Below are positions 1 to 34,632 of a stretch of DNA of 37,733 bases, in pieces. The notes under the pieces were generated by a model that did no database searches, had not been told where the DNA came from, and worked only from the letters and a program-made list of their open reading frames with translations. Position 1 is the first letter of the stretch. Every line of letters begins with the position of its first letter. Made by a program: the position numbers and the translations under genes. Source of the DNA: Escherichia coli (GTDB lineage: Bacteria > Pseudomonadota > Gammaproteobacteria > Enterobacterales > Enterobacteriaceae); assembly GCF_003334355.1 (NCBI RefSeq), contig NZ_QOWP01000034.1; one strand, 5' to 3'.

Positions 1-102
1 GCTGAACTGTTGCTGGAAGACTACAAAGCCTCCCTGAAATATCTCAGCGATCACCCGAAACTGCAGGGTATTGCCCAACAGAACAGCTTTAAACATACCT
101 GA
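1..102 (+). CDS. gadB: Glutamate decarboxylase, 3' end only (5' part lies outside the window)
   Basis: Frame 1 translates to [33 protein letters not shown] and stops at TGA 100-102. This matches the conserved C-terminal tail of E. coli GadA/GadB, and gadC follows as in the gadBC operon. Confidence 0.85.
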
Positions 103-122
103 TAACGTTTAACGGTAACGGT

Positions 123-148
123 GTCCCGAAACGAACCCGTTTCGGGAC
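123..148 (+). other. Perfect 10-bp stem / 6-nt loop hairpin between gadB and gadC (GTCCCGAAAC-GAACCC-GTTTCGGGAC)
   Basis: Inverted repeat read directly from the sequence. No T-tract follows, so it is more likely an intercistronic mRNA structure than a full terminator. Confidence 0.5.
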
Positions 149-257
149 AATTTCCAAAGTCTGTTCACTGGCATTAGCAACGGAAAATATTGTTCTGAAT
201 ACGCTTCAGAACAAAACAGGTGCGGTTCCGACAGGAATACCGTTTTAGGGGGATAAT

Positions 258-31719: not shown

Positions 31720-33260
31720 AAATCCGTTCGCAAGTCGGCATGGTGCTTAATCTCGATAAATGTATCGGCTGCCATACCTGTTCGGTGACCTGTAAAAACG
31801 TCTGGACCGGACGCGAAGGCATGGAGTACGCATGGTTTAACAACGTCGAAACCAAACCGGGCATTGGTTATCCGAAAAACTGGGAAGATCAGGAAGAGTG
31901 GCAAGGCGGCTGGGTGCGTGATGTGAATGGCAAGATACGCCCGCGTCTGGGCAACAAGATGGGCGTAATAACCAAAATCTTCGCCAACCCGGTGGTGCCG
32001 CAGATTGATGATTACTACGAACCTTTCACCTTCGACTACGAACATTTGCATAGCGCACCGGAAGGCAAACATATTCCTACTGCTCGCCCGCGTTCACTGA
32101 TTGACGGCAAACGGATGGACAAAGTGATCTGGGGGCCAAACTGGGAAGAACTGCTGGGCGGTGAGTTCGAAAAACGTGCCCGCGACCGCAACTTCGAGGC
32201 CATGCAAAAGGAGATGTACGGGCAGTTTGAAAACACCTTCATGATGTACCTGCCGCGCCTGTGCGAACACTGCCTCAATCCCAGCTGCGTGGCGACCTGC
32301 CCAAGCGGCGCTATCTACAAACGCGAAGAAGACGGCATTGTGCTGATTGATCAGGATAAATGCCGTGGCTGGCGTTTGTGCATAAGCGGTTGTCCGTACA
32401 AAAAAATCTACTTCAACTGGAAAAGCGGCAAGTCAGAAAAATGCATCTTCTGTTACCCACGAATTGAGTCCGGTCAACCGACCGTGTGCTCAGAAACCTG
32501 CGTGGGTCGCATCCGGTATCTGGGCGTGCTGCTTTACGACGCCGACCGCATCGAGGAAGCGGCGAGCACCGAGCGCGAAGTTGACCTCTATGAACGCCAG
32601 TGCGAAGTGTTCCTCGATCCACACGATCCCTCAGTGATCGAGGAAGCCCTGAAACAAGGTATTCCACAAAATGTGATTGACGCTGCCCAGCGTTCGCCAG
32701 TCTACAAAATGGCGATGGACTGGAAACTGGCACTACCGTTGCACCCTGAATACCGCACCCTGCCGATGGTCTGGTACGTTCCTCCGCTGTCACCGATTCA
32801 GTCCTACGCAGATGCGGGCGGTTTGCCGAAAAGCGAAGGCGTGCTGCCCGCCATCGAAAGCCTGCGTATTCCGGTGCAATATCTCGCCAATATGTTGAGT
32901 GCCGGCGATACCGGTCCGGTACTGCGGGCGCTGAAACGGATGATGGCGATGCGCCACTATATGCGTTCACAAACCGTGGAAGGCGTTACTGATACTCGTG
33001 CCATCGACGAAGTAGGCCTGAGCGTCGCCCAGGTCGAAGAGATGTATCGCTATCTCGCCATTGCCAACTATGAAGATCGTTTTGTTATCCCGACCAGCCA
33101 TCGGGAAATGGCGGGCGATGCCTTCGCAGAACGCAACGGCTGCGGTTTTACCTTTGGCGACGGTTGCCACGGTTCGGACAGTAAATTCAACCTGTTCAAC
33201 AGTAGCCGTATCGATGCCATCAACATCACCGAAGTGCGCGACAAAGCGGAGGGCGAATAA
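31716..33260 (+). CDS. narY: Respiratory nitrate reductase Z beta subunit (Fe-S)
   Basis: 514 aa with ferredoxin Cys clusters (CIGCHTCSVTC, CEHCLNPSCVATCP, CRGWRLCISGCP). ATGA overlap with narZ. Confidence 0.95.
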   Translation: MKIRSQVGMVLNLDKCIGCHTCSVTCKNVWTGREGMEYAWFNNVETKPGIGYPKNWEDQEEWQGGWVRDVNGKIRPRLGNKMGVITKIFANPVVPQIDDYYEPFTFDYEHLHSAPEGKHIPTARPRSLIDGKRMDKVIWGPNWEELLGGEFEKRARDRNFEAMQKEMYGQFENTFMMYLPRLCEHCLNPSCVATCPSGAIYKREEDGIVLIDQDKCRGWRLCISGCPYKKIYFNWKSGKSEKCIFCYPRIESGQPTVCSETCVGRIRYLGVLLYDADRIEEAASTEREVDLYERQCEVFLDPHDPSVIEEALKQGIPQNVIDAAQRSPVYKMAMDWKLALPLHPEYRTLPMVWYVPPLSPIQSYADAGGLPKSEGVLPAIESLRIPVQYLANMLSAGDTGPVLRALKRMMAMRHYMRSQTVEGVTDTRAIDEVGLSVAQVEEMYRYLAIANYEDRFVIPTSHREMAGDAFAERNGCGFTFGDGCHGSDSKFNLFNSSRIDAINITEVRDKAEGE

Positions 33261-33955
33261 TGCAGATCCTCAAAGTGATCGGCCTGTTGATGGAGTATCC
33301 GGACGAGCTGTTGTGGGAATGCAAGGAGGACGCGCTGGCGTTGATCCGCCGCGACGCGCCGATGCTTACGGATTTCACCCACAACCTGCTTAACGCGCCG
33401 CTGCTGGATAAACAGGCCGAATGGTGCGAAGTGTTTGACCGCGGGCGCACTACGTCGCTGCTGCTGTTCGAACATGTTCATGCCGAGTCCCGCGATCGCG
33501 GCCAGGCAATGGTGGACCTGCTGGCGGAGTATGAAAAGGTCGGCCTGCAGCTGGATTGTCGGGAACTGCCCGATTATCTACCGCTGTATCTGGAGTATTT
33601 AAGCATACTGCCTGACGATCAGGCGAAAGAAGGATTGCTCAATGTTGCGCCGATCCTCGCCCTGCTTGGCGGTCGCTTAAAACAACGCGAGGCACCGTGG
33701 TACGCGTTGTTTGATGCTCTGCTGCAACTGGCGGGAAGTACACTTTCAAGTGACAGTGTCACAAAACAAGTAAACAGCGAAGAGCGCGATGACACCCGCC
33801 AGGCGCTTGATGCAGTGTGGGAAGAGGAACAGGTGAAGTTTATTGAAGATAACGCCACGGCGTGTGACAGCTCGCCGCTTAATCAATATCAGCGACGCTT
33901 TAGCCAGGATGTCGCGCCGCAATATGTCGACATCAGTGCGGGAGGTGGGAAATGA
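33260..33955 (+). CDS. narW: Nitrate reductase Z assembly chaperone (NarJ paralog)
   Basis: 231 aa ([20 protein letters not shown]...). TAATG overlap with narY. Confidence 0.92.
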
Positions 33956-34632
33956 TTCAGTATCTGAACGTCTTTTTTTACGATATCTACCCGTACATTT
34001 GTGCGACGGTGTTTTTCCTCGGCAGCTGGCTGCGCTACGACTACGGGCAGTACACCTGGCGCGCCTCCTCAAGTCAAATGCTCGATAAACGCGGGATGGT
34101 GATATGGTCGAATCTGTTCCATATCGGCATTTTGGGGATTTTCTTCGGGCACTTGTTCGGCATGTTAACGCCGCACTGGATGTACGCGTGGTTTTTGCCA
34201 GTGGCAGCGAAACAACTCATGGCGATGGTGCTCGGCGGTATTTGCGGTGTGTTGACGTTGATTGGCGGCGCAGGACTGCTGTGGCGCAGGCTGACAAATC
34301 AGCGCGTGCGTGCCACTTCTACCACGCCGGATATCATCATCATGAGCATTTTGCTGATCCAGTGTCTGCTAGGGCTAAGTACCATACCGTTTTCAGCACA
34401 GTATCCTGATGGTAGCGAAATGATGAAGCTGGTGGGTTGGGCGCAAAGCATTGTCACTTTCCGTGGTGGATCGTCAGAGATGCTTAACGGCGTAGCGTTC
34501 GTCTTCCGCCTGCATCTGGTGTTGGGAATGACCATCTTCCTGCTCTTCCCGTTCACCCGACTGGTGCATGTGTGGAGCGCGCCGTTTGAGTACTTTACTC
34601 GTCGATATCAAATTGTGCGTTCGCGGCGATAA
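33952..34632 (+). CDS. narV: Respiratory nitrate reductase Z gamma subunit (cytochrome b)
   Basis: 226-aa membrane protein with conserved His residues. ATGA overlap with narW. Confidence 0.93.

Follow-up and report, generated by a model that had tools for sequence, protein, structure and literature searches.

A terminus-proximal run of RpoS-dependent operons in Escherichia coli, probably controlled one by one rather than as a single domain

The window analysed here, the whole stretch of 37,733 nucleotides from Escherichia coli (assembly GCF_003334355.1, contig NZ_QOWP01000034.1), most probably holds a set of independently controlled RpoS operons near the replication terminus, each with its own promoter, and not one domain. 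The original prediction had read the same genes as an unusual concentration of stationary-phase loci, suggesting one chromosomal domain co-regulated in stationary phase, possibly through nucleoid structure. Were a 35-kb block switched as a unit in this way, it would give the long-debated idea of domain-level control in bacteria a concrete case open to testing. The genes present, where they lie with respect to dif and matS, the RpoS dependence and timing of each gene, module membership and synteny were all observed here; local RpoS enrichment is real, two- to three-fold, and modest.

The window is an ordinary, well-mapped segment of the E. coli chromosome adjoining the replication terminus. It is 100% identical to positions 632376-670108 of E. 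coli PSS-12 (NZ_AP027697.1) and collinear, in opposite orientation and at 98.9-99.8% identity, with 1,533,052-1,572,045 of K-12 MG1655 (b1461-b1493). Our literature search found no paper naming this gene cluster as such. By our own operon grouping, the window comprises about 18-19 transcription units, with the following features:

1-1793, plus strand: 3' end of gadB (1-102) and gadC, of the gadBC acid-resistance operon (annotation; promoter outside the window)
1924-3243, plus strand: digH (yddW), glycosyl hydrolase; not RpoS-dependent (stationary phase, p = 0.23)
3607-7413, plus strand: dosC-dosP, oxygen-sensing c-di-GMP cyclase/phosphodiesterase operon (annotation)
7453-7465, no strand given: exact matS site GTGACACTGTCAC in the dosP/ddpX spacer
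7671-13635, plus strand: ddpXABCDF, D-Ala-D-Ala dipeptidase and ABC transporter (annotation)
13691-14122, minus strand: osmC peroxiredoxin (annotation)
14467-14921, plus strand: bdm, then sra (annotation)
15078-18349, plus strand: maeA, adhP, yddM (annotation)
18578-23168, minus strand: fdnGHI, formate dehydrogenase-N; not RpoS-dependent (p = 0.54-0.99), interrupting the cluster
23400-24281, plus strand: yddG exporter, with a late RpoS-dependent change (onset 249 min) confined to stationary phase
24282-26508, plus strand: AT-rich island (34% GC) with the yddL porin pseudogene and an intact 443-aa LRR protein
26509-34632, plus strand: narU and narZYWV, second nitrate transporter and reductase (annotation)
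33750-33762, no strand given: exact matS site GTGACAGTGTCAC inside narW

All the genes named in the prediction (gadB, gadC, dosCP, ddpXABCDF, osmC, bdm, sra, maeA, adhP and narUZYWV) were found at their positions, gadB being represented by its final 102 bases only and position 34632 being the narV stop codon. Their supposed back-to-back arrangement is broken up, because digH, yddM, fdnGHI (4.6 kb), yddG and the AT-rich yddL/LRR island, all left out of that inventory, lie in the window. The K-12 counterpart of the LRR island is annotated as yddK (a CDS) and yddJ (a pseudogene); the island carries dense promoter-like matches and a weak SlrP-like LRR match. An Rfam scan of the window returned the fdnG SECIS (22528-22586) as its sole match. 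IS elements lie at the right edge of the window.

Expression data came from Adams et al. 2023 (Table S1), a time course of wild-type and rpoS-deletion K-12, of which the analysis covered 203 genes surrounding the window, together with two control stretches; 30 window genes were measured, those of the yddL/LRR island lying outside the measured set. Stationary-phase dependence on RpoS extends in that study to 1,379 of roughly 4,100 genes. When any RpoS-dependent change in stationary phase is counted (a significant time-by-genotype interaction), 14 of the 30 window genes respond, where about 10 would be expected (P about 0.1). Genes that are RpoS-dependent and have a fitted induction onset number 13 of 30, the expectation being about 3.9 (hypergeometric P about 4e-5; Fisher P = 2e-4 against 376 sampled control genes, 53 of them positive). 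This is an enrichment of robustly induced genes of about 3.3-fold, the highest among the roughly 400 genes sampled. At the level of transcription units, induction is seen in 9 of 18 (gadBC, dosCP, ddp, osmC, sra, adhP, yddG, narU and narZYWV) where the empirical rate is about 0.19 (P about 0.003), while fdnGHI, maeA, digH, yddM, bdm, yddE, nhoA and yddH lie outside the RpoS regulon in stationary phase.

The predicted concentration therefore stands as a local excess of induced genes, and does not stand as an outlier per operon or genome-wide. The enrichment is not genome-wide significant because comparable windows (9-11 per 30) exist elsewhere: the control stretches reach 6 and 9 fitted-onset genes per 30, and in the adjacent ydc region the count rises to 10-11, although the sliding windows scoring 11 there already contain some window genes. 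Of the RpoS-holoenzyme SELEX peaks mapped in vitro, 4 fall in the window, where 1.83 would be expected; 13.4% of all 39-kb windows hold at least as many. The four peaks lie in the yddJ/yddG spacer, inside maeA (upstream of adhP), inside yddW (upstream of dosC-dosP) and upstream of gadB; none lies at osmC, sra or narZ. About 0.4 windows as rich at the unit level are expected among 140 disjoint windows. Together, the SELEX count, the any-change count and the unit-level scan thus indicate that the window is not an outlier.

These same figures are what pure chance would offer, that is, a large regulon, operon structure and post-hoc selection with zero regional enrichment: the excesses in any-change genes and SELEX peaks are small, and a unit-level P of about 0.003 is to be expected somewhere among 140 windows. 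Such a complete absence of regional enrichment is nonetheless highly unlikely, as the 38 neighbouring genes are enriched independently of the window (12 of 38 with an onset), the densest 150-kb SELEX region genome-wide lies at 1.48-1.63 Mb, and published analyses report a terminus bias. Over the 68-gene stretch b1414-b1493, 25 genes have a fitted onset (gene-level P about 5e-7), so a local contribution over and above chance may exist. Within it, b1414-b1460 is equally rich, and the density of RpoS genes falls sharply past gadB. That this stretch of roughly 85 kb (ydcF to gadB, the window being its dif-proximal half) is an RpoS hot spot created by a Ter-specific change in the nucleoid, involving MatP, Dps, H-NS or supercoiling, is nevertheless very doubtful.

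The behaviour of single operons favours independent control. Many loci had been expected to be RpoS-dependent, and this was borne out for gadBC, dosCP, osmC, sra, adhP, narU and narZ/narV, only weakly for ddp, and not for maeA or bdm in stationary phase. The gadBC operon is RpoS-dependent under all three stresses, with onsets of 211 min (gadB) and 159 min (gadC), and its listed regulators are GadE/X/W, RcsB, Fis (negative) and CRP (negative). Wong et al. recorded no RpoS ChIP signal at gadB in their conditions. The dosCP operon depends on RpoS under osmotic stress as well as in stationary phase (onsets of 186 and 112 min), whereas in cold it does not, and a scan for the sigma-S -10 motif places a GCTATACT element 168 nt upstream of dosC. 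In the ddp operon, two of six genes (ddpA and ddpF) pass the threshold, and ddpABCDF belong to the NtrC+RpoN iModulon; it is mainly a nitrogen-starvation operon. osmC, a member of the RpoS iModulon, is RpoS-dependent in stationary phase and cold (onset 127 min); a promoter-like TTGATA-17-TATATT at 14290..14262 matches its published promoter.

Further to the right, sra is RpoS-dependent under all three stresses, and 98 nt upstream of it lies GCTATGCTTGA, a 10/11 match to the sigma-S extended -10. Its neighbour bdm is RpoS-dependent under osmotic stress only (stationary phase p = 0.11) and falls in an uncharacterized iModulon that also holds rcsA and osmB and is possibly Rcs-related. Neither maeA (p = 0.66) nor yddM is RpoS-dependent in stationary phase, while adhP, another RpoS iModulon member, is strongly so and has the latest onset (252 min). 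narU and narZYWV depend on RpoS in stationary phase, with an early onset (87-102 min), and in cold, whereas under osmotic stress they do not; narU, narZ, narY and narW belong to the EvgA iModulon, and the motif scan places a TCTATTCT element 117 nt upstream of narU. Candidate promoters of the sigma-S type (-13C extended -10, CTAnnnT) accompany 5 of 8 RpoS-positive and 2 of 9 RpoS-negative units, a tilt in the expected direction that falls short of significance (Fisher P = 0.12). The text and one supplement of the RpoS ChIP-seq study of Peano et al. 2015 contain none of six gene names searched for.

Co-regulation as one domain in stationary phase through nucleoid structure, the central suggestion of the prediction, finds no support in onsets, stress responses, iModulons, synteny or the interspersed unaffected operons. 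A shared response of all neighbouring units was not found: fdnGHI, maeA, digH, yddM, nhoA and yddE show no RpoS effect (p > 0.1) and are interspersed with induced operons, and terminator-like hairpins set units apart (7426-7441 behind dosP; a strong one at 14951-14978 behind sra). Nor were the units alike in timing, or in how they respond from one condition to another. Induction onsets in the window spread over 75-252 min, nearly the same range as among the 203 neighbouring genes (35-289 min). The RpoS-dependent set under osmotic stress consists of adhP, sra, bdm, dosCP and gadBC, and that under cold of yddH, narUZV, adhP, sra, osmC and gadBC. Independent component analysis of 278 transcriptomes assigns narUZYW to EvgA, ddpABCDF to NtrC+RpoN, adhP and osmC to RpoS, and bdm to its uncharacterized module. 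Beyond sra-maeA-osmC, linkage is not kept across related genomes. In the literature, the full gadB promoter placed at the lambda attachment site shows the same RpoS response as in its native position, so for gadB, the one promoter concerned, the response is not lost on moving.

A dif site (27 of 28 bases) lies 20.9 kb left of base 1, so that the window spans 21-59 kb from dif, and two exact matS sites (GTGACRNYGTCAC) occur in it against 0.01 expected, with one more in the left flank. With these two sites and a start 21 kb from dif, the window therefore lies inside the Ter macrodomain. Stationary-phase, RpoS-dependent and H-NS-silenced genes are reported to lean to the terminus half (Sobetzko et al. 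2012; Srinivasan et al. 2015); the finding belongs to known biology, the terminus-proximal bias of stationary-phase genes being already published. Our search yielded no evidence of transcriptional control of the window genes by MatP. In one Salmonella study, stationary-phase genes are spread evenly, yet Ter is where RNA polymerase and transcripts become concentrated once cells enter stationary phase, which leaves room for a domain-level effect.

A supra-operonic domain, covering the window or b1414-b1493, would accommodate this observation if H-NS/Fis/Dps, MatP organisation of Ter or relaxation of supercoiling formed a shared permissive layer. The roughly three-fold enrichment with its sharp fall after gadB, the Ter location with matS sites and the published origin-versus-terminus expression domains of E. 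coli are in keeping with it. So are the AT-rich segments (dosC region, 43% GC; osmC-bdm, 45%; LRR island, 34%), the H-NS SELEX mark in the bdm/osmC spacer, and the listing of H-NS (negative) for osmC and of Fis for gadBC. Such a domain is still unlikely, given the asynchronous onsets, the differing osmotic and cold behaviour, the unaffected fdnGHI, maeA, digH and yddM between induced operons, the separate iModulons, the gadB promoter unchanged at lambda att, and the lack of conserved synteny; moreover, the published domains are of megabase scale, not 35 kb. Nucleoid proteins appear to act here promoter by promoter, H-NS at the bdm/osmC spacer and osmC, and Fis at gadBC. The AT-rich yddL/LRR island is likely an H-NS target, judging from its base composition.

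The history of the region is likewise one of separate pieces. Matches to the window occur in each of the 5,426 complete E. coli genomes searched, and 4,245 of them hold at least 80% of its first 25 kb in one place. The sra-maeA-osmC linkage is kept from Klebsiella to Escherichia, no other linkage is kept outside E. coli, and in more distant Enterobacterales osmC stands by itself. Among related genomes, bdm, adhP, yddM and ddp are variable, and dosCP-digH-gadBC adjoins ddp in E. coli only. Strains differ by loss of ddp or by gain of a 3-hydroxybutyrate cluster; the ddp operon is missing from E. coli E69, and in other strains a 6.8-kb catabolic insertion lies between it and osmC. The region was put together piecemeal in evolution, with sra-maeA-osmC old and ddp variable.

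A genomic island was considered and rejected on composition (50.3% GC overall, atypical only at 24282-26508), boundaries (no tRNA by ARAGORN, no integrase) and distribution. These features also weigh on the proposal that a survival toolkit of acid resistance, low-oxygen signalling and alternative respiration has been selected for co-inheritance or co-amplification, in the manner of a fitness island. The functions are loosely tied to survival in the gut and in stationary phase, the EvgA/YdeO acid-circuit genes ydeP-safA-ydeO are found 12-15 kb left of the window while narUZYW co-vary with the EvgA module, and a 129-gene block containing the region was once duplicated in a laboratory-evolved strain. 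Against average GC, core-chromosome distribution, pieces that joined at different times and strain variation by ddp loss or cluster gain, this is the least probable of the readings considered here.

Under independent control, about half of the units would carry their own RpoS-responsive promoter, each also wired to specific regulators. Stationary-phase co-induction would then be due to a factor acting in trans, RpoS, which builds up and binds promoter after promoter, and no domain state shared in cis would be involved. Three ordinary effects probably account for the apparent clustering: the RpoS regulon is very large, with a quarter to a third of genes responding in stationary phase; multi-gene operons (nar, ddp, dos, gad) swell gene counts; and stationary-phase and accessory genes are moderately commoner near the terminus. 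The terminus bias, we infer, would arise as genes of slow or no growth gain no benefit from replication-associated gene dosage and as insertions and deletions are tolerated there.

With genomic (fitness) islands, the window shares strain variability, ddp loss, the 6.8-kb insertion, an AT-rich LRR segment and IS elements, but it differs in having no tRNA or integrase boundary, average GC, a piecemeal origin and a match in each complete E. coli genome searched. With the Ter macrodomain organised by MatP and matS, it shares proximity to dif and two exact matS sites, whereas the published origin-to-terminus ordering is statistical, extends over hundreds of kilobases to megabases, and makes no claim of a 35-kb block switched as a unit. 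Further comparisons are co-expression units above the operon level, silenced domains bound by H-NS (tsEPODs), and position effects, reportedly described by Junier and Rivoire in 2016, Vora et al. in 2009 and Bryant et al. in 2014. The AT-rich segments of the window and the H-NS mark at bdm/osmC resemble these and suggest single-promoter effects of nucleoid proteins; unlike such units, which are defined by these traits, the window lacks co-expression across neighbouring units, common timing and conserved synteny. The general stress regulon of RpoS (sigma-S) offers the further comparison: nine window units share RpoS-dependent induction, and several carry a candidate extended -10 with -13C, or a peak of RpoS-holoenzyme binding in vitro. 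That regulon differs in being defined in trans, scattered over the genome and independent of adjacency, and half of the window units are not members. Since it takes in between a quarter and a third of the genome, a 30-gene window will readily contain a run of members, and such runs are best assessed operon by operon, with a genome-wide scan for comparison.

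The window is collinear with K-12 MG1655 1,533,052-1,572,045 (b1461-b1493), in the opposite orientation and at 98.9-99.8% identity. By megablast it matches 5,426 of 5,426 complete E. coli genomes, at least 80% of its first 25 kb lying in one place in 4,245 of them, and E. coli PSS-12 matches it at 100% identity. The PSS-12 annotation gives the following order:

gadB (last 102 bases), gadC, digH, dosC, dosP, ddpXABCDF: plus strand
osmC: minus strand; then bdm, sra, maeA, adhP, yddM: plus strand
fdnIHG: minus strand; then yddG: plus strand
yddL porin pseudogene, then a 443-aa leucine-rich-repeat protein: plus strand
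narU, narZ, narY, narW, narV: plus strand
yddE: plus strand; nhoA: minus strand; yddH: plus strand; pptA: minus strand
ISEc5-family transposase gene, start only, at the end of the window: plus strand

This collinearity and annotation establish that the gene calls and coordinates of the original prediction were right, and all of the genes are well-studied K-12 loci; the prediction had omitted digH, yddM, fdnGHI, yddG and the AT-rich island, all of them interspersed with the listed loci. An ORF finder splits fdnG into 20121-22532 and 22581-23168 because of its in-frame TGA, which carries an Rfam SECIS_3 element (84 bits, window 22528-22586, minus strand). The annotated HigA-family antitoxin yddM (window 18065-18349) lies only 145 bp from adhP and 228 bp from fdnI (the latter spacer about 180 bp longer in K-12), too close for a toxin partner to fit, and looks like an orphan antitoxin-like regulator.

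RpoS dependence was assessed with the RNA-seq data of Adams et al. 2023, who followed wild type and an rpoS deletion over time in stationary-phase entry, high osmolarity and cold; the rows for b1349-b1598 and two control stretches were taken from these data. These data come from K-12, a different strain from the window's, and a changed gene is one with a time-by-genotype interaction, indirect effects included. Among the 30 window genes measured, 14 showed a significant rpoS-dependent stationary-phase change (pptA, narV, narZ, narU, yddG, adhP, sra, osmC, ddpF, ddpA, dosP, dosC, gadC and gadB), all except pptA with a fitted induction onset. No stationary-phase rpoS effect (p > 0.1) was seen for fdnG, fdnH, fdnI, maeA, digH, yddM, nhoA, yddE, narW, ddpC and bdm (p = 0.11), the last of which responds under osmotic stress only. 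The other genes below threshold, narY, ddpD, ddpB, ddpX and yddH, have p = 0.02-0.07. The claim that many of the named loci depend on RpoS stands, the exceptions being maeA, bdm and, largely, ddp, a weakly dependent operon in which 2/6 genes pass.

Genome-wide, Adams et al. 2023 report a stationary-phase change for 1,379 genes, a fitted onset for 537, a change in cold for 302 and a change in all three stresses for 156.

Observed and expected RpoS-responsive genes in the window, assuming a genome total of 3,900-4,400 genes
Any stationary-phase change: 14/30 observed, about 10 expected, nominal P about 0.1
Fitted onset: 13/30 observed, about 3.9 expected, nominal P about 4e-5
Changed in cold: 9/30 observed, about 2.2 expected, nominal P about 2e-4

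Fitted-onset genes were also in excess over 376 sampled control genes, a sample rather than the whole genome (53 with onset, 14%; Fisher P = 2e-4). Because genes within operons are not independent, they were assigned to transcription units by our own grouping, with boundaries also from a hairpin scan; 9/18 units were RpoS-positive, with a nominal P of 0.002-0.004 at a hand-counted control rate of about 18-20% from the two control stretches. At this unit-level P, 0.3-0.6 windows as rich are expected among 140 disjoint ones. The appCBA...wrbA control stretch reaches up to 9/30 onset genes and the adjacent ydc stretch 10-11/30, the counts of 11 coming from sliding windows that overlap some window genes. 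Across b1414-b1493, 25 of 68 genes have an onset (gene-level P about 5e-7), and this density falls sharply beyond gadB. In-vitro RpoS-holoenzyme SELEX peaks, which are independent of the expression data, show no excess in the window (4/218 versus 1.83 expected), 13.4% of 39-kb windows genome-wide holding at least four. The densest 150-kb SELEX window of the genome, 1.481-1.631 Mb, has 16 peaks, within the range of random placement (expected maximum: mean 15.2, 95th percentile 18). The predicted concentration is therefore real as a local enrichment, two- to three-fold and continuing leftward past the window, but the window is not an outlier genome-wide.

The proposal that these loci form a single domain, co-regulated in stationary phase through nucleoid structure, is not supported. 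Fitted onsets are asynchronous, against a range of 35-289 min in the 203-gene neighbourhood:

Fitted induction onsets in the window
ddpF: 75 min
narU: 87 min
narV: 97 min
narZ: 102 min
dosP: 112 min
osmC: 127 min
gadC: 159 min
dosC: 186 min
gadB: 211 min
ddpA: 213 min
sra: 220 min
yddG: 249 min
adhP: 252 min

The responding sets differ between stresses (adhP, sra, bdm, dosCP and gadBC in osmotic stress; yddH, narU/Z/V, adhP, sra, osmC and gadBC in cold), and induced operons are interspersed with unaffected ones. In the iModulon decomposition of 278 transcriptomes by Sastry et al. 2019, the window operons fall in separate modules: adhP and osmC in the RpoS iModulon, narU, narZ, narY and narW (26509-33955) in the EvgA rather than the RpoS iModulon, ddpA-F in NtrC+RpoN, and bdm in an uncharacterized one shared with rcsA and osmB. 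Also against a single domain, the gadB promoter retains its native RpoS response at the lambda attachment site (Wong et al.), and there are terminator-like hairpins after dosP, after sra and at fdnI/yddM. H-NS acts on osmC, an H-NS mark being reported for the spacer holding its promoter, and Fis acts on gadBC; nucleoid proteins in the window therefore act promoter by promoter. The published osmC promoter is also the top sigma-70-like hit of the promoter scan (14290..14262).

The suggested scan for sigma-S-type elements pointed in the expected direction, -13C extended -10 elements lying upstream of 5/8 RpoS-positive units (dosC, ddpX, osmC, sra, narU) and 2/9 RpoS-negative units, but the difference is not significant (P = 0.12). 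A sigma-S-like -10, GCTATACT, lies 168 nt upstream of dosC. The AT-rich 363-bp digH/dosC spacer (window 3244-3606), where the locus-tag series of PSS-12 has a gap of one, is annotated in K-12 with a 13-aa protein, YddY, immediately upstream of dosC. One RpoS SELEX peak lies inside yddW.

In the 50-kb left flank (L082), a dif site matching at 27/28 bases adjoins hipA (L082:29053-29080), 20.9 kb from window base 1, and a matS site lies at L082:19348-19360. The window itself holds two exact matS sites, versus 0.01 expected:

7453-7465: exact matS site, dosP/ddpX spacer
33750-33762: exact matS site, within narW

Given dif and these sites, the window lies within the core of the Ter macrodomain, a location absent from the original prediction. 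The EvgA-circuit genes ydeP, safA and ydeO (L082:34681-38241) are some 12-15 kb to the left of the window, with gadBC between them and its remainder; several acid-response loci are therefore close to dif.

GC content is 50.3% overall, the dosC region (43%) and osmC-bdm-sra (45%) being moderately AT-rich, and no tRNA genes were found in the window. Foreign-looking composition is confined to 24282-26508 (34% GC), an island with promoter-like sites densely packed on both strands, holding the yddL pseudogene and the leucine-rich-repeat ORF, intact and with a weak SlrP-like match. Its K-12 counterpart is annotated as yddK (318 aa) and a yddJ pseudogene, so that the copy in K-12 may be broken. Insertion sequences bound the region on both sides: on the right, a transposase of the ISEc5/ISAs1 family (ydcC) at the window's edge (37620-37733); on the left, between dif and gadB, copies of IS3 and IS5 (L082:29521-30749, 41013-41993) along with several truncated genes.

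Linkage was surveyed in 80 genomes with a close OsmC homologue, 10 kb each side. The sra-maeA-osmC linkage occurs in Escherichia, Citrobacter, Salmonella, Enterobacter and Klebsiella; bdm, adhP, yddM and ddp are variably present, and dosCP-digH-gadBC follows ddp in E. coli only. In one Pseudocitrobacter genome dosCP adjoins osmC in a different arrangement, and in Pectobacterium, Erwinia, Pantoea, Buttiauxella and others none of these genes is found within 10 kb of osmC. The ddp operon is missing entirely from E. coli E69. In another E. coli strain (L003:10430-17270), as in most sampled Citrobacter (loci L004-L018 except L009, L013 and L017), osmC and ddpF are separated by a 6.8-kb cluster for 3-hydroxybutyrate/acetoacetate catabolism. 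It encodes 3-hydroxybutyrate dehydrogenase, thiolase, CoA-transferase A/B, 3-hydroxyacyl-CoA dehydrogenase, a LysR regulator and a 463-aa protein without assigned function. Gene content at the osmC/ddpF junction is variable, and the block was assembled piecemeal within a plastic region. One iModulon of Sastry et al. 2019 results from a 129-gene duplication in a laboratory-evolved strain (K-12 region including b1461-b1490), with listed members including narY, ddpB, ddpX, yddW, fdnI, dosC, sra, pptA, adhP and osmC; the whole stretch can therefore be amplified as a block.

The original prediction is partly confirmed as an observation; in its interpretation, RpoS dependence is supported. Our search of the accessible literature found no paper naming this run of operons as a cluster. 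Published accounts describe expression domains of origin and terminus that oppose each other, and RpoS-dependent, stationary-phase and H-NS-silenced genes as biased toward the terminus half. For stationary-phase genes this bias is disputed by a Salmonella study, which reports that RNA polymerase accumulates in Ter in stationary phase. The RpoS-rich run of the window is known biology.
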